64,000 nt of DNA from Thermoplasmata archaeon (GCA_023261755.1 JAGDXS010000026.1:22015-86014), one strand, 5' to 3'. Numbered from the stretch's first letter, positions 39,654-54,539 are shown. Notes: a model not told the origin generated them from the letters alone. Made by a program: numbers and translations.

Positions 39654-42149
39654 ATGCTTAAATTAATATTTCAAGACCCGGCTAAATTTTTAATAAATAA
39701 TTATAAAAATTACGATGCAATAATCCTTCCAGATCAAATATTGAAGAGGAACTTGGAAATTTATTTTAATAAAAGTAATAATGAAGATATTCCAGATAAT
39801 ATATTTACAATTTTTTCCCTTGCCAAAGAAATAAGCGGAAAAAATTTAATTTTATTGCCTAGATTTCTTGAGAGGGAATTAGCTCATTTGTCATTAAAGG
39901 ATATTAATTATTATAGAGATCTCCATGATAATGAGCATTTTATCACTGATCTACTTAATGAATATTGGGAAATAAAAGAAAATATTTTGGCAGGTAAGGA
40001 AATTAATGATAATTCAAAATTCTTTGAAGCATTTGATAGAAATTTTTCATGTTATTTAAAAAAATTGAAGGAAGGAATAATAATAGAAAATAATATTTAT
40101 TATATCTATCCGAAAGAAGAGGTTATTTTTCTTTTAATAGATAACCTAAAAGAAAAATTAAAGAATATCATTTTTTGCTGTTTTTATTACGTAAATCCAA
40201 CATTAAAGAAATTTATTGATGATTTTAAAAATGATCTGGAAATTTCTTTTTTAATAGAACCTATGTTCATGGAACCCGCAAAAGATCTATTGAATAGGTT
40301 AGAACCATTGGATTTGGAAAAAAGGGAAATGGAAATGCCTAAAAATGTTAAAGTAATAGCCTTGCCAGATCAAAGAAGAGAAATAAAATATATAGCAAAT
40401 TATATTTTGGAACAAACTTATAATGGTTATTCTTATTCAGATTTCATTGTAGCTTTTCCTAATGTAAAGGAATATGAACAATATGTGGATGAAATTTTTA
40501 ATCTATATAAGATACCATATTTCCTTGAATCAAGGAAAAAAATTATAGAATTACCTCTATCAAGCATTTTAATTGATAAATTAAAGGATAAAAATTTTGA
40601 ATCCATAGAGAATTTTATAAATGCCCTTCTTGTTGAATTTAACAATACAATTGATTCTGAAACATCTGAAAATTTAATTAACGTTGGTAAAGTCTTCAAA
40701 TCAATCAAAGAATTTAAAAATGAGATGATTATATTAGAAAAATACTTTAAACTGAAATTAAATTATATTGAAAGTTTTAAATCATTTATATCTATATATA
40801 ATTTTGGACAAAATATAGAAAATTTAAATGCCGTTCAGATAATAGATCTAGGTAATATATCTTTTAGAAAATCAAAAAATATAATAATAGGAGGATTAAA
40901 CGAAAACAATTTTCCTCAATTCTATAGAAACAAAATAATTTTTCCAGAAATTTATTCTCTAAAAAAAATATATTTTAGAACAATGGAATTGCATAAGAAT
41001 ATTGATCTTTATAGAATAGGTTCTATATTCTCTTATGGCCAAGTATTTTTATTCACTTATCCATATTTAGATTTAGAAGGAAAAAGATACTTAGAATCTT
41101 ATTTTATAAGAAAAATGGAAAATGAGCTTGGAATAAAATTTGAAAGGGAAAATGAATCAGCATCATCATTAATCTATGGTAAAGTATTGTTTCATGAAAA
41201 AGACTTAATGATTAATAATGCAATATATAATAATATTAAAAATCAAAATGAATATAATTTAGAGTGTAATCAGGAATTAAAAAATTTAGTATCTAAAATT
41301 GATCTCACACCTACTCATATAACTACATATAACACTTGTCCAAGAAAATTTTATTATAGATATGTTTTAAAATTAGAGATTCCTGTAAAAATCTTTTCTC
41401 CTACTTATATGGGAACTATAGTTCATGATGTTCTAAAAAAATTTTATGAAAAGTATGATAATCTATTGGAATTGAATGATTTGGTACAAAATAATGAAAT
41501 AAGGTTAAAAAATATTATAGATCAGATAATTGGATCAATTGAAATGGATCAGAAAATTAATGAAGAATTTAAAATACATCTGGAGGCTATAAAAAGATAT
41601 GTAATAAGAGCAATAAAGAATGATTTAAGCATAGATTATTCTAGAAAAGTAATAGCTAGAGAAAAAGAATTTAATCTTGAAATTTCCGGAAGATTGATAA
41701 AAGGAAGGATAGATAGAATTGATAAACTTGGAAATGCCTACGTTTTAATGGATTATAAATACTCATCCATATCCCATGTAAGAGATCTATTTATACAAAA
41801 TGAAGAAGATATAAAACCTGAAAAAGATCTTAGTCTTCCAATATATATGATGTGGCTAGAGAAAAATTATTCACCAGAATCATTTGTAGCATTTTATTTT
41901 CCAATAAGAGCTAGATTAAAAAAACAAAAAAAATGGTTATACCTGTACACAAAAAATTTCAGGTCCACTTCAAAGGGTTGGACTTACTATGTTAAAAATA
42001 ATGTATGGAATGAAAAATTTAAAAGGGTGATCACAGATAAGATTTTAGACATAATTGATGGAATCAAAAATTGTGAATTTCCCATAATTGAAAATGAATC
42101 CATATGTAGACAGTGTGAATTCAGATATATATGTAAAGGTGATTTATGA
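39654..42149 (+). CDS. AddB/RexB-like subunit: inactive helicase scaffold + PD-(D/E)XK nuclease with 4-Cys motif
   Basis: REIKYIA..I, IIGGLNE..FP, FTYP, then TP T..TTY.TCPRKFY, GRIDRID, MDYK, CRQCEFRYIC. No Walker A. Confidence 0.8.
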   Translation: MLKLIFQDPAKFLINNYKNYDAIILPDQILKRNLEIYFNKSNNEDIPDNIFTIFSLAKEISGKNLILLPRFLERELAHLSLKDINYYRDLHDNEHFITDLLNEYWEIKENILAGKEINDNSKFFEAFDRNFSCYLKKLKEGIIIENNIYYIYPKEEVIFLLIDNLKEKLKNIIFCCFYYVNPTLKKFIDDFKNDLEISFLIEPMFMEPAKDLLNRLEPLDLEKREMEMPKNVKVIALPDQRREIKYIANYILEQTYNGYSYSDFIVAFPNVKEYEQYVDEIFNLYKIPYFLESRKKIIELPLSSILIDKLKDKNFESIENFINALLVEFNNTIDSETSENLINVGKVFKSIKEFKNEMIILEKYFKLKLNYIESFKSFISIYNFGQNIENLNAVQIIDLGNISFRKSKNIIIGGLNENNFPQFYRNKIIFPEIYSLKKIYFRTMELHKNIDLYRIGSIFSYGQVFLFTYPYLDLEGKRYLESYFIRKMENELGIKFERENESASSLIYGKVLFHEKDLMINNAIYNNIKNQNEYNLECNQELKNLVSKIDLTPTHITTYNTCPRKFYYRYVLKLEIPVKIFSPTYMGTIVHDVLKKFYEKYDNLLELNDLVQNNEIRLKNIIDQIIGSIEMDQKINEEFKIHLEAIKRYVIRAIKNDLSIDYSRKVIAREKEFNLEISGRLIKGRIDRIDKLGNAYVLMDYKYSSISHVRDLFIQNEEDIKPEKDLSLPIYMMWLEKNYSPESFVAFYFPIRARLKKQKKWLYLYTKNFRSTSKGWTYYVKNNVWNEKFKRVITDKILDIIDGIKNCEFPIIENESICRQCEFRYICKGDL

Positions 42150-44971
42150 TGGACTGTGAAAAATTAACAGAGAGACAGAAGGAACTGGTAAAAAATGCAA
42201 AAATTAGGGATATATCAGCTTTTGCTGTTGCAGGTTCTGGTAAAACTACTGTTCTTGTTTGTGCATATATGGAAATTATTGATGAATTAATTAAAAAGTT
42301 TGGTTCAATATCAGAAGCCCTTGATAGAGTTCTAGTGATTACTTTTACAGATGATGCGGCAACAGAAATAAGAGAAAGAATAAGAAAAAAGTTGGAGGAA
42401 AGATACGATTACATTGGCGATCTTAATTATATATCTACCATACACAGCTTTGCAAATAAAATATTAAAAAATGCATCTGTTAAATTGAATATTGATCCAG
42501 ATTATAAAGCAGGTGACGAATATTTAAACATGGAGCTGAAAATTTCTACTTTTAAAGAAATTATAAAAAATTCAGAAGAAATGGATAAGTTAATGGAATA
42601 TTTCAATCCTGTGAAAATTGGAAGGAATGATCTTTCTATTGGTGATATCATTTTTATTCTTTATGATAAAATGAAAGCAATGGGTTGGGATTTTTCATAT
42701 ACAATCTTAAAAATTAAGGAAACATTAAAAAATTATGAAGATGAAGAAGAAGCAAAAAAATTAATAATAGAACCTCTCATAAAAATTTTTGATGTATTCT
42801 ATCATAATATAGAAAGTAAGAAAAAAAGATTGGGTATACTATCATATGATGATATTTTGTATTATGCCTTTCTAGCTCTAAAAAACAATCTTTCATATGA
42901 TTATAAAAATTTTGAATATGTGATTGTGGATGAATATCAAGATACTAGTTATATACAGCAGGAAATTATAAATAGAATTGCTGAAAATTCAAAAAAAATA
43001 TATGCGGGAGATTTTTTCCAAAGCATATATGAATGGCGTGACGCTATACCCAGAGAAGCATTAAAAAATGTAAATTCTGGAAATTTTATTTCTATTGAGA
43101 TGAATGAAAATTTTAGATCAATTCCTGAAATTATTGATTTTATTAATTCTTTATTCTCAAAAATTTTCCATGAAAATATAGAATCTATTAATTATATAAA
43201 TATAAAAGCAATCGAAAATCCATTCGATGAGGGTGGTGTTTTTATATTTAAAGGTGAAGCTTTAAATGCTGATGAAAGGCATAAGATTGAAGCTGAAAAT
43301 TTTGCAATTGCAATATTAAATCTTTTGAAAAAAGGAAAAGTGCGTGAAAAGGATGGAACAATAAGGAAAGTGAATATGGGAGACATTGCTATACTATTCA
43401 GATCTAAAGCACATATGAAAATTTATTCAGAGGCATTAAGGAAATATGGAATTAAATATACATTCATAGATAAAGAAAATTTTTTTCAAACAACAGAAAT
43501 AAAAATTATTTTGGATCTTTTTAACGTTTTAAATGAAAATAGATGGCAAAATACGAATGATTACGAAGTGGCTGAAATTCTTAGATATGCTTACAATTTT
43601 TCATTTTCAAATAAAGACAGTGACAAAATTAAAAAATATATAAGCGATATGAATGATATCTCAAAAATACTTTTAGGCAAAAAAGATAAAATAGTTCTTG
43701 AATTTTTGAAAATAACTAATTTTGATGTACTAGTTTTAAATGATTACAATGGTATTCAGAAATATCTTAACATATACAGATTCATCGATCTCATAAGGGA
43801 AATAGAAGATGAAAAAATACTTTCAATGAAAGAATTCGTTGATATTTTAAACGGTATAATTGAGAATGAGAAGGTATCATCACTTCCTTTATTCGATCTT
43901 AAAGAAAATAGTGTTAGATTATTAAGTATACATGCCAGTAAAGGGCTGGAATTTCCAGTAGTATTTGTGGCGGACTTGCAATCTAATTTCAGAAGAAATT
44001 CAGATAAATTGTATTTGGATAGAGAAATAGGTATATTCATAGATGTAGAGGAATTAATAAATGAGAAGTTAAGCAGGAAATTAGAACAGGAAATACAAAA
44101 AAAGAGATTGCAAGAAAATCTTAGGATTTTATATGTAGCTTTTACAAGAGCAAAACAATATTTATTATTTTCCCTACCTGAAAACTATAATTTAAGTGAG
44201 AAAAGTTTTTCTGATTTTATTTTAAAAAATATAAATAAGAAGGATCTTGATCATTATAAAAATCGCGCTTTATCATTAATGGAAAAAATTGATTATAAAC
44301 CAAAAATACAAGAATCGAATGATTACTTAATTCTTCCAATTAAAAAAATGGAAAGAAAGTTACCATATATTAGTGCAACAGACATTAAAGACTTTTTATT
44401 TTGTCCAAGATATTATCATATTAAAAAAAGGTATGGAAATCTGTTGGAAGGTGAGAATGTTTCATATGGTGCATCTTTCCATAAATTTATGGAAAATTTA
44501 GATCAGGAGGATGATATCCCAGATATTTTCTCCAATTATGTTAATTTTATTAAAAATCACGAAATATGGAATGAAATTCATGCAGATGGAAATAAAATAT
44601 ACAAGGAACTAGAAATAAGGGTCAAAATTGGGCATACAATATTAATATCAGTCCTAGATTTATTATCTTTTGGTGAAAATTCTATAATATTGGATTATAA
44701 AACAGGTTCCTTTAATGAATTTGATAAATTACAGATGGATGTATACGCTTATGCATTTTATAAAAAATTTAATTCAATTCCTAAAAAAATAGCAGTTGTA
44801 TATTTGAAGGAAAACAAAATAATCGAATTTTATTATTCTAAAGATGATATTCTTAGAACAGAAAGAATGATATTCAAAATTATAAGGGATATAGAAGCTG
44901 AAAATTTTGACATGAATTTAGGAAATTGTAATAAATGTAATTTAATGAATTTATGCAAAAAACAAAATTAA
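42146..44971 (+). CDS. AddA/UvrD-like SF1A helicase + PD-(D/E)XK nuclease with 4-Cys motif
   Basis: AVAGSGKT, VITFTDDAA.EIRERI, STIHSF, VDEYQDTS..Q, GDFFQSIY.WR, ENFRS, SIHASKGLEFPVVF, LYVAFTRAK; FCPRYY, LDYKTG, QMDVY, CNKCNLMNLC. Confidence 0.88.
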   Translation: MMDCEKLTERQKELVKNAKIRDISAFAVAGSGKTTVLVCAYMEIIDELIKKFGSISEALDRVLVITFTDDAATEIRERIRKKLEERYDYIGDLNYISTIHSFANKILKNASVKLNIDPDYKAGDEYLNMELKISTFKEIIKNSEEMDKLMEYFNPVKIGRNDLSIGDIIFILYDKMKAMGWDFSYTILKIKETLKNYEDEEEAKKLIIEPLIKIFDVFYHNIESKKKRLGILSYDDILYYAFLALKNNLSYDYKNFEYVIVDEYQDTSYIQQEIINRIAENSKKIYAGDFFQSIYEWRDAIPREALKNVNSGNFISIEMNENFRSIPEIIDFINSLFSKIFHENIESINYINIKAIENPFDEGGVFIFKGEALNADERHKIEAENFAIAILNLLKKGKVREKDGTIRKVNMGDIAILFRSKAHMKIYSEALRKYGIKYTFIDKENFFQTTEIKIILDLFNVLNENRWQNTNDYEVAEILRYAYNFSFSNKDSDKIKKYISDMNDISKILLGKKDKIVLEFLKITNFDVLVLNDYNGIQKYLNIYRFIDLIREIEDEKILSMKEFVDILNGIIENEKVSSLPLFDLKENSVRLLSIHASKGLEFPVVFVADLQSNFRRNSDKLYLDREIGIFIDVEELINEKLSRKLEQEIQKKRLQENLRILYVAFTRAKQYLLFSLPENYNLSEKSFSDFILKNINKKDLDHYKNRALSLMEKIDYKPKIQESNDYLILPIKKMERKLPYISATDIKDFLFCPRYYHIKKRYGNLLEGENVSYGASFHKFMENLDQEDDIPDIFSNYVNFIKNHEIWNEIHADGNKIYKELEIRVKIGHTILISVLDLLSFGENSIILDYKTGSFNEFDKLQMDVYAYAFYKKFNSIPKKIAVVYLKENKIIEFYYSKDDILRTERMIFKIIRDIEAENFDMNLGNCNKCNLMNLCKKQN

Positions 44972-45886: not shown

Positions 45887-45981
45887 ATTTTTAATTTAAT
45901 AGTCAAATGTCGAATATAAGCTTTAACAATAGGTAAACTTATATACTATTGTTTTTTTTCATTCACTAGAAGGTGAATTTA

Positions 45982-47022
45982 ATGGTAGGTATAGTAACCT
46001 ATGGATCTTACATCCCAAGATATAGAATAAAGGTAGAAGAAATTGCAAGGGTGTGGGGTGAGGATCCTGAAGACATAAAGAATGGCTTGTATATTTATAG
46101 CAAGAGCGTTCCAGGCCCGGATGAAGATACAGCGACAATTTCGGTGGAAGCATTAAGAAATGCTATGGCAAGAAAAAGACCTATTGGTGTTGGTGCTGTT
46201 TATGTGGGCTCAGAATCACATCCATATGCTGTTAAACCCACAGCAACAATTGTAGCAGAAGCTGCAGGACTTGCACCTGAAGTTACTGCCGCTGACTATG
46301 AGTTTGCTTGTAAAGCTGGTACAGCAGCAATGCAAACCGTTATGGGCATGGTAAAAAGTGGAATGATAAGAGAAGGTGTAGCGATCGGGGCTGATACTAG
46401 CCAAGGTGCGCCAGGTGATGCATTAGAATTTTCAGCTGCCGCAGGAGGTACAGCCTTTGTGATAGGTAATGAAAACGTAATTGCTGAAATTAAGGCAACT
46501 TATTCAATTACAACAGATACACCAGATTTTTGGAGGAGAGAAGGTCAGGATTATCCAAGACATGGTGGAAGATTTACAGGTGAGCCAGCATATTTCAGGC
46601 ATGTTTTAGACACATCGAGAAAAATAATGGAAATAATGAAAACAAAACCTGAGGATTATACTTATGCCGTATTCCATCAACCTAATGGTAAATTTCCATC
46701 CAGAGCAGCGAAAATATTAGGCTTTAAAGAATCACAAATTAAACAAGGTCTAATTGTTCCATATATAGGAAATACCTATTCGGGTTCTATGATAACTGGT
46801 TTATCTGCTATCCTTGATATAAGCAAACCTGGAGATAGAATTTTAGCCGTTTCATTTGGTTCTGGTGCAGGAAGCGATGCATTTCATATAGAAATAACAA
46901 ATGAAATGGAAAACTTCAGGAGGGAGAATGCACCTGCAGTATGGAATCAGATTGAAAGGGCCAAATACATAGATTATGCATACTATGCTAAATTCAAGAA
47001 AAAGATAAAAATGGGTGAGTAA
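45982..47022 (+). CDS. Hydroxymethylglutaryl-CoA synthase (archaeal)
   Basis: [30 protein letters not shown] (catalytic Cys), [24 protein letters not shown]. Confidence 0.95.
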
Positions 47023-47023
47023 G

Positions 47024-48196
47024 ATGAGAGACGTTGTTATTGTTGGTGTTGGTCAAACCAAATATGGAGAACATTGGGAAAAATCATTAAGGTCTCTTGT
47101 TGTTGAAGCAGGTTTAAGGGCAATTGAGGATGCGGGAATATATTCTAAGGATATTGAAGCAATTTATGGAGGAAATATGAGTGCTGGTTCTACAACTTTT
47201 CAAGATCATATAGGTCCTTTGATAGCTGATTTTACCGGTTTAGCAATAAATAAGATTCCTGCATTAAGGATAGAAAATGGAAGTGCTAGTGGTGCTGCAG
47301 CTTTTCATGAAGGATTTGCAGCAGTAGCATCCGGTTTGTATGATACAGTGCTTGTAGGTGGAGTTGAAAAATTGACTGATGTCTCTATGGAAGAAGTGAC
47401 TGAAGTTCTTTCTGGTGAAGTAGATAGGGAATGGGAACTTTTTAATGGAGCAACCTTGGCCTCTCTGGCAGCATTAATAGCAAGAAGATACATGCTTGAT
47501 TACAATGTTAAAAGGGAGCAAATTGCATTAATGCCGGTACTATCCCATAAGCATGGGTCATTAAACCCATATGCACAGTTTAAAAATACGTTGAAAGTAG
47601 AGGATGTTTTGAATTCAACTATGGTTGCTGATCCGCTTACAATGCTTGATTGCGCCCCAGTTTCAGATGGTGCCTCTGCAGTAATTTTAACTACCATAGA
47701 GAATGCAAAAAAATGGAAAAAGGATAGTATTGTTAAAGTTAAAGCATCTTCAGTGGCATCAGATTATATTGCATTGCAAAGTAGGGAAAACATTACAAGA
47801 TTTGATTCAGTGATAGAAGCATCAAGGAAAGCATACAAAATGGCAAAATTGGAACCAAAAGATATTTCATTTGTTGAAATTCATGATGCATATTCCATAT
47901 TTGGATTAATATCATTGGAGGATCTTGGATTTTTTGAAAAAGGAAAAGCAGGAAAATATCTTGAAGAAGGATATGGAAATCTTGATAGTAAATTGCCAAT
48001 TAATCCATCTGGTGGTTTAAAGGCAAAAGGACACCCTGTTGGTGCAACTGGTGTTGGACAGATTGTAGAATCAATATTACAATTAAGGAAGGAAGCTGAA
48101 AAGAGACAGGTTTCAGATCCTAAGAATGCACTTACTCTTAATATGGGTGGTTCGGGAGGTTCAGCGATAGTTCATATCTTGGAGGTGGTAAAATGA
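47024..48196 (+). CDS. Thiolase-family protein (acetoacetyl-CoA thiolase position) lacking both canonical catalytic Cys
   Basis: VGGVEK, DCAPVSDGA, INPSGGLKAKGHPVGATG; ENGSASG replaces ExACASG and HDAY replaces HDCF. Confidence 0.88.
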   Translation: MRDVVIVGVGQTKYGEHWEKSLRSLVVEAGLRAIEDAGIYSKDIEAIYGGNMSAGSTTFQDHIGPLIADFTGLAINKIPALRIENGSASGAAAFHEGFAAVASGLYDTVLVGGVEKLTDVSMEEVTEVLSGEVDREWELFNGATLASLAALIARRYMLDYNVKREQIALMPVLSHKHGSLNPYAQFKNTLKVEDVLNSTMVADPLTMLDCAPVSDGASAVILTTIENAKKWKKDSIVKVKASSVASDYIALQSRENITRFDSVIEASRKAYKMAKLEPKDISFVEIHDAYSIFGLISLEDLGFFEKGKAGKYLEEGYGNLDSKLPINPSGGLKAKGHPVGATGVGQIVESILQLRKEAEKRQVSDPKNALTLNMGGSGGSAIVHILEVVK

Positions 48197-48591
48197 CAAT
48201 ACCAAGGTTTTGGAGAGAATTTGAACATAGATACAGGCTAGTTGGAACAAAATGTCCATCCTGTGGAAGGGTATATTTCCCTCCAAGGGATGTTTGCCCT
48301 TATTGCCACAGAGAATCTGTGGGAAAAATGAAAAAGTATGAACTAAAACCTACAGGAAAAATTTATTCCTATACAGTGGTTCACCAAGATGTACCAGATT
48401 TTAAGTTCATTAAGCCATATATTATGGTACTGGTGGAGATGGATGATGGCCCCAAAATAACTGGACAACTTACTGATATAGAACCAGAAGAAGTGAAAAT
48501 AGGAATGCCTGTGAAAGCTGTTTTCAGGAGGATCAGGGAGGAAAGCGCTTCAGGAATAATTGAATACGGGTACAAATTTGTACCCCTTTAA
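48193..48591 (+). CDS. DUF35 Zn-ribbon/OB-fold scaffold of the thiolase-HMGS complex
   Basis: CPSCGRVYFPPRDVCPYC, G.IYSYTVV, VKIGMPV.AVFRR, YGYKF. Confidence 0.93.
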   Translation: MTIPRFWREFEHRYRLVGTKCPSCGRVYFPPRDVCPYCHRESVGKMKKYELKPTGKIYSYTVVHQDVPDFKFIKPYIMVLVEMDDGPKITGQLTDIEPEEVKIGMPVKAVFRRIREESASGIIEYGYKFVPL

Positions 48592-50312: not shown

Positions 50313-53300
50313 TTGAAAAATAAAAAACTCTTGAATATGTTAAACATGGTAATAATTTTATTAATAATTACATCGTTAATACCATTAGGAATATCAAATA
50401 ATTTAGTTCAAAATAAAAAAATAAATTCTCTAGAGAGTACATCTGTTAAAAATATATACATTAATTCTACGTTTGTTATTAATTCTACAACCATAGATCC
50501 TCTTACTGGAGAAAAGGGTATGTATGGTTTTAATGGTAACGTAATTATAGGATCATCTGGAAATTTAACTGTATTAAATGCGAATGTTTATTTTATACAG
50601 GATTCTTTATCACCAGTTTCACTTTCAATTGTGGCGGGCGGATCAATTTATCTTAAAAATTCAACTTTAACAGTAACTCCTGACAGATATTATCCATCAT
50701 TGAATTTTTCTGTTAATGATTATGGAGGACAGATCTATTTTAACGGAGCAAGAATTTTGTATCCAGGTTGGTTCAACGTGACTGGTTCAAATGTTTATCT
50801 ATATAATACAACATTTGCTAATGTAACATCACAACAAATTAATTTAGCGAATCAATTTGGATTGTCTCCAACTAATGATCCATTTATATTAAACGGTCCC
50901 ACACCACTTTTCACATCCGATACAATAGCTATGAAAAATGTTTTCTTTTATAAATTACCTCAAAATGCATACGGTAAAACCCTTATCGCATCCGGTCCAC
51001 CATCAAATGTTCATTTTCCACAATACATTTATCCTGGTCAAATTTTAAGCATCGGAAATGGATTTTCTCTGTCACCAGGAAGTGTATTTCCATATACAAC
51101 ATTTAGTAATGGAACAATCCTTCTGAATTATTCTACAACAAATAATAATTCTTATAATTCGAGTATAAAAGTTTATTATAAAAATATTTTACTTTATTCA
51201 AATATTTTATTACCACAATATAAAGCAAAATCCGCATCATTTTTATTGAACTTCTCAAATATTATATATTTAATAAATTATAGTGCAATTACTAACCCTG
51301 GAAATATATTCGTAAATATAAGTGGTCCGAGTGCTGGAGAATTAATAATAAATTCTATAGAATTAAATCTGTATACGGATAAAAGTTTGACTAATCAAAT
51401 AGGATTTTTAAAGCACCAGTTCAATCTTATTAGATCTACATTATATGGTGAAAATGTTTTCATATCAGCAAATTCCAATTTTTCAAATGGAAACCCAAGT
51501 AAAAATTATATATTTTTGCAGAATAGTCAAGCATATATTTTGAATTTAACCGTCTGTTCTGAAAAATTTTCAGTAGGATACCATGATCCACCATATTTAA
51601 TGGATCAATCTTCCTCTATATATTTATATAGAAATGCAATAGTTAAAATACAAAATTATAATGGAATTCCATTATCAAATCTTAATGTATCTGCGTCACC
51701 AGATAATTTACCAATTTTTTCAAATGGAAAAGTTATCTTAGACAATCAAATTGTTTCCAATCTCAATAATATTTTGTATTCATCCCTTGGCATTGGTCCT
51801 ACGTTGACAAATTCTTCAGGTATAGCAATATTGCCATTATTTACAGATAACGTCTCTATGTCTTATTGGCCAAATGCCTTGTATGGAGGTAATTATATAT
51901 TCAATATAAGTGCTGGGACAAGGTTATTAAAATCATCAGAAATTGGTTTACCCTATTTCCCCAATCTAAATCTGACAGGAAATAATTATAAAATAAATGA
52001 AACTGTGATAGTTCCGGATATAGTATTAAAAAGTATATCTATACCATTAGAGATGATACATAACCAAACATACACAATATCTTCTGAGATATTCGTTCAA
52101 GGGGAATCAATTTCAAATGTTCCAGTAAGTTTTAACTTACCTGGATTTTCCAAAATTATTATTGTAAATCTTAATGAAAATAAAGATACATTTGTTAATA
52201 TTAGTTATACTGTCCCGTATGACGTGTTGCCTGGGAATTATACTGTAAATATATCTGTAAATCCAAGCAGAACGATTTATGAAAGCAATTATTCTAATAA
52301 TTACAAGGTTGCAACTGTTAAAATATTTCCTGATACAGATGTAGGTGTTTCAAAGCCTGTATTTTCGAAGATGAACCTTTATTCAGCGGATTTCATTAAT
52401 TTTACAGTTTACAATCTAGGTACTGATGCCGCATCTAATGTACATGTTGAATTAATGCTAACGCCTCCAAATGGAGCAATAATGACTAATTATTGGATTT
52501 TAAATATATCTGGAAATAAAAATATATCATTATCATACAAGTTCATACCTCAGATAATAGGTACTTATAGTGTTACTGTTTACGCACCTTATTATTGGGA
52601 TATTAATTATTCAAATAATTACAATTTCAATACTACATCATCAAGTATAGTATATTTCTTCATACCTTCAAATACAGGTTTCTCCATTTTAGGAAATATA
52701 ACACCTAATATGCCTATGAGTATAGAGCTCTATTCTGAAATAGGTGTAAATGGAGTAATACTATCACAGGCTCCAAACGTAACTGTATCATTTAATGATT
52801 TGACAAACGGTGTAAATATAGGAAGTACACAAACATATTATTCAAATGGCGCAATATATGCCAATTTAACAACAAATTATTTCTATTATGGACATAAATA
52901 CTTAGTGGGATTGGTTTTAACTAATCCATATGAGAATTTGTCATACGTTGTTTATGTTTATTATAATTTCACTTTATACGTACCATCAATATCATATACA
53001 ATAGATCCCATATCTTCTACTTACATGAATGGCACAACTATACCTATATATATAAATTTGACAACAGGATCAACATCAATTAATGACCTGAACGTTATAA
53101 TTGAATTCCCAACATTAAGTATCATGCATAGATGGTTATTAAACACTACACCTTATGAAAATATTTCATTAGTATATTATTTGAATGCAACTTTAAATAT
53201 GGGGAATAACAATGAAATTCAACTGCCATACGAAATATATATCACTTATCCAGAAATATCTCCTTATAATGTTATACTTGACAAGGGACAGATTACAATT

Positions 53301-54539
53301 TTTGAAAAACCAAATATTTACATACAATCATTCACATATAAATATAATTCAGTTGTAAAGAACATAAATAATGTTCCAGCAGGTACATATTTTGAAGTAA
53401 TAATGGTGATAGGTAATGATGGTGGTACTTTAGCCAAAGGAAATACTACAATTTCATTGGTTGAAAATGGTAATATAATCTATACTAAAAACATTACAAA
53501 TATTGCTCCTGGAAGTACTGTAAACATTACTACCAATGTCACTGCAACTTTAGCTGGAGAGAATACATTAACAATAATTGCCAATTATACATACTTGCCA
53601 CAGAAAATAAATGGACCAAAAAGTGCAAGCTTTAATTTTATTGTCGTGCCTCCAAATACAGAGGTCATAATGTACTCATCATCCACAACAATAACCTCTG
53701 GGCAGAGATTAACATTGACATTTATGGTATTAAATATAAATGCTACCCAACAACTAGGTAGAAATGTGTTCTTAACAGATATATCATTAACAATTGTTAT
53801 GAAAAGTGGATCAATATCTAATACTTACAATATTTATATAGGTTCTAATGGGATAGGAATTCTAACAGTATCACCAAACCAGGCAGGTAAATATTCAATA
53901 ATAGCTTCTTATTCATATTTTGGGCAACAACAAAATGAGATATTACCAACTCAAATAAATGTTCAGGGTCAATCCATACTACCTTTATGGTTAATAGTTG
54001 TAATTGTAATAATTGTAATAGTGATAGGCATATTTGCATATTCATTCATGAAGTATAAGAAGGTAGAGAAAAATCTAATGGTTTGCGGTAACTGTGGAAG
54101 TTTGATACCTGCCGATTCAGAAAAGTGCCCTGTATGTGGTGTTGTGTTTGAAAAAGAAAATGTAAAATGTGGAAACTGCGGATCTTGGATAAAGAAGGAT
54201 GCAAGGTATTGTCCAGTATGCGGTGCATTATACATGGATGAAAATGACCCTGATTACAAGAAATATTCAAAACTAAGGGAAGAATACAATTTAGAAATTC
54301 AGAAGTATAAAGAAGAGGCGAAACGTGAACTAGGTGACAAATTTACTGACGAGGAATTTTTCAGATGGTGGAATTCAAAACCTGAGTTCATAACATTTGA
54401 AAAGTGGATTGAGAAAAAGGAAGAGGAAAAGGGTCAAACAGTAGAATGTCCAGTATGTGGCACATTGAATCCAAAAGGAGCAAAATTCTGCAAAGTATGT
54501 GGATCACCATTACCTGGAAATACAAATGAGAAAAAATAA
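50313..54539 (+). CDS. Large cell-surface glycoprotein: signal peptide, beta-rich/CARDB-like domains, C-terminal TM helix, cytoplasmic triple zinc ribbon
   Basis: TTG start after GGAGGTG. N/S/T/Y-rich; 'VNPSRTIYESNYSNN' and 'V.NLGTD.A..V.V' CARDB-like motifs; TM LPLWLIVVIVIIVIVIGIFAY; six CxxC pairs. Confidence 0.85.
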   Translation: MKNKKLLNMLNMVIILLIITSLIPLGISNNLVQNKKINSLESTSVKNIYINSTFVINSTTIDPLTGEKGMYGFNGNVIIGSSGNLTVLNANVYFIQDSLSPVSLSIVAGGSIYLKNSTLTVTPDRYYPSLNFSVNDYGGQIYFNGARILYPGWFNVTGSNVYLYNTTFANVTSQQINLANQFGLSPTNDPFILNGPTPLFTSDTIAMKNVFFYKLPQNAYGKTLIASGPPSNVHFPQYIYPGQILSIGNGFSLSPGSVFPYTTFSNGTILLNYSTTNNNSYNSSIKVYYKNILLYSNILLPQYKAKSASFLLNFSNIIYLINYSAITNPGNIFVNISGPSAGELIINSIELNLYTDKSLTNQIGFLKHQFNLIRSTLYGENVFISANSNFSNGNPSKNYIFLQNSQAYILNLTVCSEKFSVGYHDPPYLMDQSSSIYLYRNAIVKIQNYNGIPLSNLNVSASPDNLPIFSNGKVILDNQIVSNLNNILYSSLGIGPTLTNSSGIAILPLFTDNVSMSYWPNALYGGNYIFNISAGTRLLKSSEIGLPYFPNLNLTGNNYKINETVIVPDIVLKSISIPLEMIHNQTYTISSEIFVQGESISNVPVSFNLPGFSKIIIVNLNENKDTFVNISYTVPYDVLPGNYTVNISVNPSRTIYESNYSNNYKVATVKIFPDTDVGVSKPVFSKMNLYSADFINFTVYNLGTDAASNVHVELMLTPPNGAIMTNYWILNISGNKNISLSYKFIPQIIGTYSVTVYAPYYWDINYSNNYNFNTTSSSIVYFFIPSNTGFSILGNITPNMPMSIELYSEIGVNGVILSQAPNVTVSFNDLTNGVNIGSTQTYYSNGAIYANLTTNYFYYGHKYLVGLVLTNPYENLSYVVYVYYNFTLYVPSISYTIDPISSTYMNGTTIPIYINLTTGSTSINDLNVIIEFPTLSIMHRWLLNTTPYENISLVYYLNATLNMGNNNEIQLPYEIYITYPEISPYNVILDKGQITIFEKPNIYIQSFTYKYNSVVKNINNVPAGTYFEVIMVIGNDGGTLAKGNTTISLVENGNIIYTKNITNIAPGSTVNITTNVTATLAGENTLTIIANYTYLPQKINGPKSASFNFIVVPPNTEVIMYSSSTTITSGQRLTLTFMVLNINATQQLGRNVFLTDISLTIVMKSGSISNTYNIYIGSNGIGILTVSPNQAGKYSIIASYSYFGQQQNEILPTQINVQGQSILPLWLIVVIVIIVIVIGIFAYSFMKYKKVEKNLMVCGNCGSLIPADSEKCPVCGVVFEKENVKCGNCGSWIKKDARYCPVCGALYMDENDPDYKKYSKLREEYNLEIQKYKEEAKRELGDKFTDEEFFRWWNSKPEFITFEKWIEKKEEEKGQTVECPVCGTLNPKGAKFCKVCGSPLPGNTNEKK

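Follow-up and report, generated by a model that had tools for sequence, protein, structure and literature searches.

The thiolase step at the head of isoprenoid-lipid synthesis is thermodynamically unfavourable, and the archaeal complex of thiolase, HMG-CoA synthase (HMGS) and a DUF35 protein is thought to provide the pull. It counts as the general archaeal answer to that uphill first step, acetoacetyl-CoA being made and used in one assembly. The HDC cysteine is regarded as the acid/base of SCP2-type thiolases. According to PMC12960953, which cites Voegeli 2018 on this point, archaeal HMGS shows no activity and the thiolase is insoluble if each is expressed alone; the same paper reports that the histidine of the HDxF motif is essential, the H284A change abolishing activity. 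Hoshino and Gaucher (PMC6107057) note many "other AACT homologs" without the catalytic motif and some archaea with a bacterial thiolase II. Our literature search found no paper on cysteine-less HMGS-linked thiolases in Thermoplasmata, which does not prove that none exists.

The operon and its thiolase subunit

The window (the whole stretch of DNA analysed here, 64,000 nucleotides of a Thermoplasmata archaeon, GCA_023261755.1 JAGDXS010000026.1:22015-86014) carries the three genes in the order HMGS-thiolase-DUF35, with the following features:

45973..47022, + strand: HMG-CoA synthase of archaeal type, catalytic residues intact (TIGR00748, 567.5 bits against a cut-off of 353)
47024..48196, + strand: thiolase-fold subunit of 390 aa without the nucleophilic and HDC cysteines, a proposed pseudo-thiolase (PF00108 and PF22691 matches; AF2 model)
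47282..47284, + strand: codon AGT of Ser87, at the nucleophile position, loop RIENGSASG (opposite the catalytic Cys of 6esq_A and 7yvy_A in the alignment)
47651..47653, + strand: codon TGC of C210, in LDCAP, the sole cysteine of the thiolase, in a column conserved in orthologues
47882..47893, + strand: motif H287-D-A-Y290, canonically HDCF, with H287 retained, Cys changed to Ala and Phe to Tyr
48032..48034, + strand: His337 of the GHP motif (KGHPVG), present, and kept in 12/12 members of the window clade
48193..48591, + strand: DUF35 zinc-ribbon/OB-fold scaffold protein (PF12172 and PF01796 matches)

A reading made from the DNA alone, before any comparison (the sequence-only reading), had described HMGS and DUF35 as intact and tightly coupled to the thiolase, and both points are borne out by the motifs and the spacing of the genes. 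A single nucleotide separates the HMGS and thiolase genes, and the thiolase stop overlaps the DUF35 start by 4 nt (ATGA). The HMGS, which scores 478 bits against 6esq_I, carries E81 (GSESHPY), C113 (EFACKAG), H235 (FHQPN) and N267 (GNTYSG), and the DUF35 protein (E = 3.8e-41 against 6esq_E) has its CxxC...CxxC motif. HMG-CoA reductase and mevalonate kinase are present in the same genome, so the cell needs HMG-CoA.

The thiolase belongs to the expected family, with 523 bits on NF004720 (cut-off of 420) and E = 1.4e-109 against 6esq_A, to which it is about 48% identical over the structural alignment. Its AF2 model has a mean pLDDT of 92.9 and superposes on 6esq_A with a TM-score of 0.96 and an rmsd of 1.2 A. 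On the equivalog NF053570, built around the M. thermolithotrophicus enzyme, it reaches 505.4 bits, under the cut-off of 600, while a canonical protein (P0045) scores 633.7. This cut-off does not cleanly separate cysteine-less from cysteine-bearing proteins, since a cysteine-bearing DHVE2-like protein (P0013) also falls below 600.

Alignment to the solved structures confirmed the motifs that the sequence-only reading had picked out. Using HMMER, Ser87 falls on the cysteine of RVEAACASG in 6esq_A and of KIEAACASG in 7yvy_A, HDAY falls on the HDCF of 6esq_A, the C-terminal stretch NMGGSGGS has no cysteine, and the GHP histidine is intact. No other cysteine is placed in the active site. The sole cysteine, C210, was considered as a compensating nucleophile and rejected: its column is Cys in 49/49 cysteine-bearing and 27/29 cysteine-less orthologues, and Met in the loci L007 and L040, with LDMAP instead of LDCAP in P0011 (the protein encoded by L007) and in P0012. 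Because the residue is shared by canonical enzymes and most cysteine-less ones, C210 is, on the alignment, an old conserved residue and no new compensating nucleophile.

The sequence-only reading had taken both the ExACASG and the HDCF cysteines as established features of archaeal complexes, but the second is not universal among archaeal enzymes presumed active. The P. furiosus protein of PDB 7yvy (PFC_04095), for which our literature search returned nothing, the DHVE2-group MAG locus L011 and the proteins P0013-P0042 keep the nucleophilic Cys and read HDAF for HDCF. In the DHVE2-like genome G002, which reads HDAF, no other thiolase is found, so the HDC cysteine seems dispensable in vivo, or replaced by something else. 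The window protein keeps the histidine of the HDxF position, and the cysteine that it lacks there is also absent from the presumed-active 7yvy and DHVE2 clade proteins.

The serine itself might be a sequencing or assembly error, AGT being one base from TGT, or the gene a decaying pseudogene; the chance of either is negligible. The contigs of three sequencing runs of one hot-spring sample (Logan assembled contigs, 15-29x word depth) are identical over the thiolase gene, with no variants, and all keep AGT at 47282; the exact protein is present on 6 contigs. Serine is found in all 12 of the closest protein-database clusters (65-100% identity, the window's own included), of which P0002-P0012 span 65-91% identity, and the AGT codon recurs in L010, L007 and L005. 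A sequencing error is rejected on these grounds, and so is an isolated mutation, close relatives having no Cys at this site. Against a pseudogene stand the intact frame, a dN/dS of about 0.07 and the confidently predicted fold.

Two other genes of the window drew our attention. The gene at 50313-54539 (+) encodes a protein of 1408 aa, rich in Asn, Ser and Thr, with a signal-like segment at its N terminus, a late transmembrane helix and several CxxC zinc-ribbon-like motifs in the cytoplasmic tail. The gene at 42146-44971 (+) encodes a 941-aa UvrD/AddA-like helicase, whose C-terminal PD-(D/E)XK-like region ends in the Cys cluster CNKCNLMNLC.

Cysteine loss and selection across Thermoplasmata

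We tabulated the motifs of 80 related loci from species-representative genomes and of three further loci obtained by exact protein look-up. Over 78 operons, the nucleophile position was Cys in 49, and the 29 cysteine-less thiolases carried Gly (18), Ser (7), Asp (2) or Thr (2). The rest of the catalytic set was lost along with it, the HDC cysteine in 27/29 and the GHP histidine in 22/29 of these proteins. The HMGS E/C/H/N tetrad was invariant in 78/78 operons, and the HMGS-thiolase-DUF35 gene adjacency was kept in the cysteine-less operons. Apart from the window, 27 of the 28 cysteine-less loci had a DUF35 gene with the CxxC...CxxC motif, and the last locus ends before DUF35 could show.

The loss is lineage-wide. 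All tabulated archaea outside Thermoplasmatota, and the few bacterial MAGs with the operon, read E-x-x-C-A-S-G, HDCF and GHP, while within Thermoplasmata the HMGS-adjacent thiolase is without the cysteine in nearly every sampled lineage. The window clade reads ENGSASG, with Ser87, H287 and H337 fixed in 12/12 members. Thermoplasmatales (including a Thermoplasma sp. and B_DKE) show EAS[ST]ASG, [HN]DSY and GNP; Methanomassiliicoccales and related lineages show EA[AG]GASG, EAASASG or EAGDASG, with HD[NDS] and G[DQNYR]P; the remaining Thermoplasmata show EGGGA[SC]G. The absence of the cysteine is a trait common to most Thermoplasmata sampled, not an isolated mutation.

A maximum-likelihood tree built from 81 sequences unites the window clade (Ser in all 13 rows) and Thermoplasmatales (6 rows, Ser or Thr) in one clade (SH-aLRT of 97), sister to the DHVE2-like clade with Cys and HDAF. 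Methanomassiliicoccales and the other Thermoplasmata, all without Cys, group in a clade apart, with a support of 99, and isolated variants with Asp are scattered elsewhere. The tree requires at least three to four events of cysteine loss. Asp at the nucleophile position arose separately in L017, L067 and P0084 (EAADASG, EAGDASG and ESADASG).

Some single sequences deserve mention. P0084 is sister to a cysteine-bearing SG8-52-3 sequence. Three Thermoplasmata MAG loci (L035, L036 and L054) read EGGGACG, with Gly at the nucleophile position and a Cys two residues on, at the Ser of the canonical CxS, which could be either a displaced cysteine or chance. A 5-kb contig in a record titled Bacteroides ovatus (L074) carries a Methanomethylophilaceae-type operon of HMGS, cysteine-less thiolase and DUF35. 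It is probably a mis-binned archaeal contig, since it nests inside the Methanomethylophilaceae-type archaeal clade in the tree.

The cysteine-less gene is not decaying. It is under strong purifying selection, with a constraint that is partly relaxed. Between the window thiolase and that of L010 the dN/dS is about 0.07, with dS near saturation. The thiolase/HMGS p-distance ratio was 1.36 for cysteine-less pairs versus 1.04 for cysteine-bearing pairs (about 1.3-fold faster), and at matched HMGS divergence the divergence of the cysteine-less thiolases was higher by a factor of 1.2 to 1.6, an excess that showed best where divergence was low. Among the 95 columns at least 95% conserved in cysteine-bearing proteins, 69 were still at least 90% conserved in cysteine-less ones. 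The most strongly relaxed 7 of the other 26 columns were 86, 87, 132, 145, 146, 290 and 337, of which 86, 87, 290 and 337 belong to the nucleophile loop, HDxF and GHP motifs. No column of the cysteine-less proteins was newly conserved (at least 90%) with a residue unlike the canonical consensus, so there is no sign of a gained catalytic residue.

Complete thiolases elsewhere and the role of the subunit

A listing of the other thiolases in the genome of the window (1.22 Mb, 93% complete), which the sequence-only reading had proposed as a check, returned four further thiolase-like genes, three of them with complete catalytic motifs (C26, C11 and C36):

C26: bacterial-type thiolase II with VCGSG, NEAY, GHP and CLGGG (TIGR01930, 460 bits), adjoining a 3-hydroxybutyryl-CoA dehydrogenase
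C11: FadA-like thiolase, part of a beta-oxidation cluster
C36: thiolase of the SCP2 type, paired with a DUF35 of its own, motifs ESACSGS and HDCF
C33:43119-46206, outside the window: thiolase-like protein of 452 aa with a DUF35, Gly at the nucleophile position (RIEGGGATGG) and HDAY

The C33 thiolase-like protein scored best on NF004982, where its 565 bits stay under the cut-off of 695. The C33 thiolase/DUF35 pair, the third such pair in this genome, adjoins an acyl-CoA dehydrogenase and lies 2 kb from mevalonate kinase.

A bacterial-type thiolase accompanies the cysteine-less copy beyond this genome as well. The loci led to 43 genomes, and a PF00108 match scoring 255 bits or more was present in 25/25 of those with a cysteine-less copy versus 3/18 of those that keep the cysteine (Fisher test; P = 5e-9). 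This raw P value overstates the evidence, as the two traits yield only about 2 contrasts that are independent in the phylogeny; when corrected for phylogeny, a test of this co-occurrence on 2 independent pairs lacks any power. We extracted 26 such thiolases from 26 of the other genomes, 23 of which have a cysteine-less copy, and every one carries the four catalytic motifs, as does C26. In several Methanomassiliicoccales the bacterial-type thiolase is the only one besides the degenerate copy, while the DHVE2-like and AUK021 genomes keep the cysteine and have no other thiolase. The bacterial-type thiolases of 25 Thermoplasmatota form one clade with C26 that broadly tracks lineage groups, which fits an old acquisition.

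The coordinated loss of the catalytic set, the intact partners and operon, the strong but partly relaxed selection and the complete thiolases elsewhere make up the pattern expected of a pseudoenzyme retained by its complex. We consider it probable that the subunit is a pseudo-thiolase kept as a structural, CoA-binding part of the HMGS assembly. In such a scheme the catalytically degenerate thiolase would be retained since HMGS works within the thiolase/HMGS/DUF35 assembly, and would contribute to it both structure and a portion of the CoA-binding site. A thiolase encoded elsewhere, most likely the C26 thiolase II or the C36 SCP2-type thiolase/DUF35 pair, would make acetoacetyl-CoA, and HMGS would condense it with acetyl-CoA to give HMG-CoA for the mevalonate pathway. 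We infer the lack of thiolase activity from sequence, and likewise infer the formation of the complex and the supplier of acetoacetyl-CoA.

Several observations argue for this reading. In 18 of the 29 cysteine-less proteins the position is occupied by Gly, which cannot be a nucleophile. The inactivity of archaeal HMGS and the insolubility of the thiolase when each is alone, as stated in PMC12960953, give a reason for keeping a dead subunit. One alternative of the sequence-only reading was a pseudo-enzyme that serves as a scaffold while another enzyme provides acetoacetyl-CoA, and it is this part that gained ground, favoured by the three complete thiolases, the lineage-wide loss that includes Gly, and the thiolase co-occurrence. 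Against it, the co-occurrence amounts to no more than about 2 independent contrasts, and without channelling the pull on the thiolase step would be lost. In addition, Ser87, H287 and H337 are kept in 12/12 members of the window clade and the sister Thermoplasmatales keep a hydroxyl residue (Ser or Thr), which makes a Ser-His chemistry conceivable.

A serine nucleophile belonged to the other alternative that had first been proposed, and it concerns above all the window clade, which retains Ser87, H287 and H337. Ser87 would be a working nucleophile activated by His337, an acetyl-O-serine intermediate would form, and the complex would still make and channel acetoacetyl-CoA. We hold this to be unlikely, and it is rather improbable that, with a working Ser87-His337 dyad, the window clade, and perhaps the Ser/Thr Thermoplasmatales, represent a natural serine Claisen thiolase inside an HMGS complex. 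Acetyl-O-serine Claisen chemistry is, to our knowledge, known for no native thiolase. The C89S mutant of the Zoogloea thiolase still has low activity, and DpsC works with a Ser-His-Asp triad. The sister clade keeps Ser or Thr through varied codons (AGT, ACT/ACC and TCC); enzymes that have to be active, as in G002 (HDAF and no other thiolase), appear to manage without the HDC cysteine; and there is a solved structure of a thiolase-like protein, ST0096 (4yzo), with a naturally occurring Ser. However, the parallel cysteine-less clade mostly has Gly, and L029 and L074 have Gly at the nucleophile site and yet keep the GHP histidine, so retention of this histidine does not imply catalysis. The window protein is also off the canonical consensus at 86, 132, 145, 146 and 290, and with three complete thiolases encoded in 1.2 Mb of genome the activity of this subunit is not needed. 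A Cys-to-Ser change in the YDCY motif of Sal abolished activity (PMC12329534), although the parallel is indirect, since the position corresponding to Ser87 is Gly in Sal.

A subunit with a different chemistry altogether, such as malonyl-CoA decarboxylative condensation, a retro-aldol reaction of the Sal/Ltp2 kind, acyl-transfer or hydrolysis, is very unlikely. Such repurposing has precedents: the Ltp2 and Sal aldolases and TbSLP, a weak malonyl-CoA decarboxylase, are repurposed folds without the nucleophilic Cys (PMC12329534), and among bacterial HMGS/ACAT/DUF35 complexes some now serve as C-acyltransferases (PMC12960953). Against it, a search for a PF01039 carboxyltransferase gave no match in the 93%-complete genome, while the same search matched 12 of 14 control genomes. 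There is thus no evident source of malonyl-CoA, which argues against a malonyl-CoA-dependent route; NphT7-like acetoacetyl-CoA synthase chemistry is disfavoured, and with it the decarboxylative variant that the sequence-only reading had put forward. A Sal/Ltp2-type aldolase is rejected because the window motif is HDAY and not YDxF, or more fully YD[CH][FY]. The lack of any newly conserved residue and the still canonical partner HMGS also speak against a new function.

Relation to described complexes

Should the thiolase subunit prove dead in the archaeon of the window and throughout Thermoplasmatales, Methanomassiliicoccales and their relatives, the model of one assembly that makes and uses acetoacetyl-CoA would fail for a whole class. 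A bacterial-type thiolase would then begin lipid synthesis in these archaea, and partnership with HMGS would be all that kept the old subunit in place. Such a case would be a clear non-orthologous displacement that left a pseudoenzyme behind. It also calls for caution with the automatic annotation of such genes as acetyl-CoA acetyltransferase.

The closest described system is the thiolase/HMGS/DUF35 complex of M. thermolithotrophicus (6ESQ), with which the window locus shares the same three genes, the same tight operon and a thiolase fold at the TM-score given above (0.96). The window protein differs from it in having Ser for the nucleophilic Cys, Ala for the Cys of HDCF and Tyr for its Phe. 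Since canonical covalent thiolase chemistry is not expected in the window complex on these residues, neither is the channelling of acetoacetyl-CoA made on the spot.

A second group of relatives shares the SCP2-thiolase-like fold, often a DUF35 association, and Gly or Ser at the nucleophile position, namely Ltp2, Sal and TbSLP (PMC12329534) and ST0096 (4YZO). The ST0096 structure, from Sulfolobus tokodaii, reads RVDNTSGSG, with Ser at the nucleophile position, and HDM, and is 36% identical to the window protein; our literature search found no functional paper for 4YZO, only incidental mentions. Identity to the window protein is only 25-36% over this group, whose members are not HMGS-linked, and Sal, Ltp2 and SLP carry YD[CH][FY] with a new catalytic Tyr or Cys where the window protein has HDAY.

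A further parallel is with the PhlABC, MucABC and P. fluorescens ACAT/HMGS-DUF35 complexes (PMC12960953), which are tripartite, of the same ancestry, and keep one condensing subunit although it is degenerate. In all of these the HMGS is dead and the thiolase keeps its Cys. The window complex would be the mirror image of these bacterial assemblies, with a degenerate thiolase beside an invariant HMGS tetrad, and unlike them it remains in primary metabolism.
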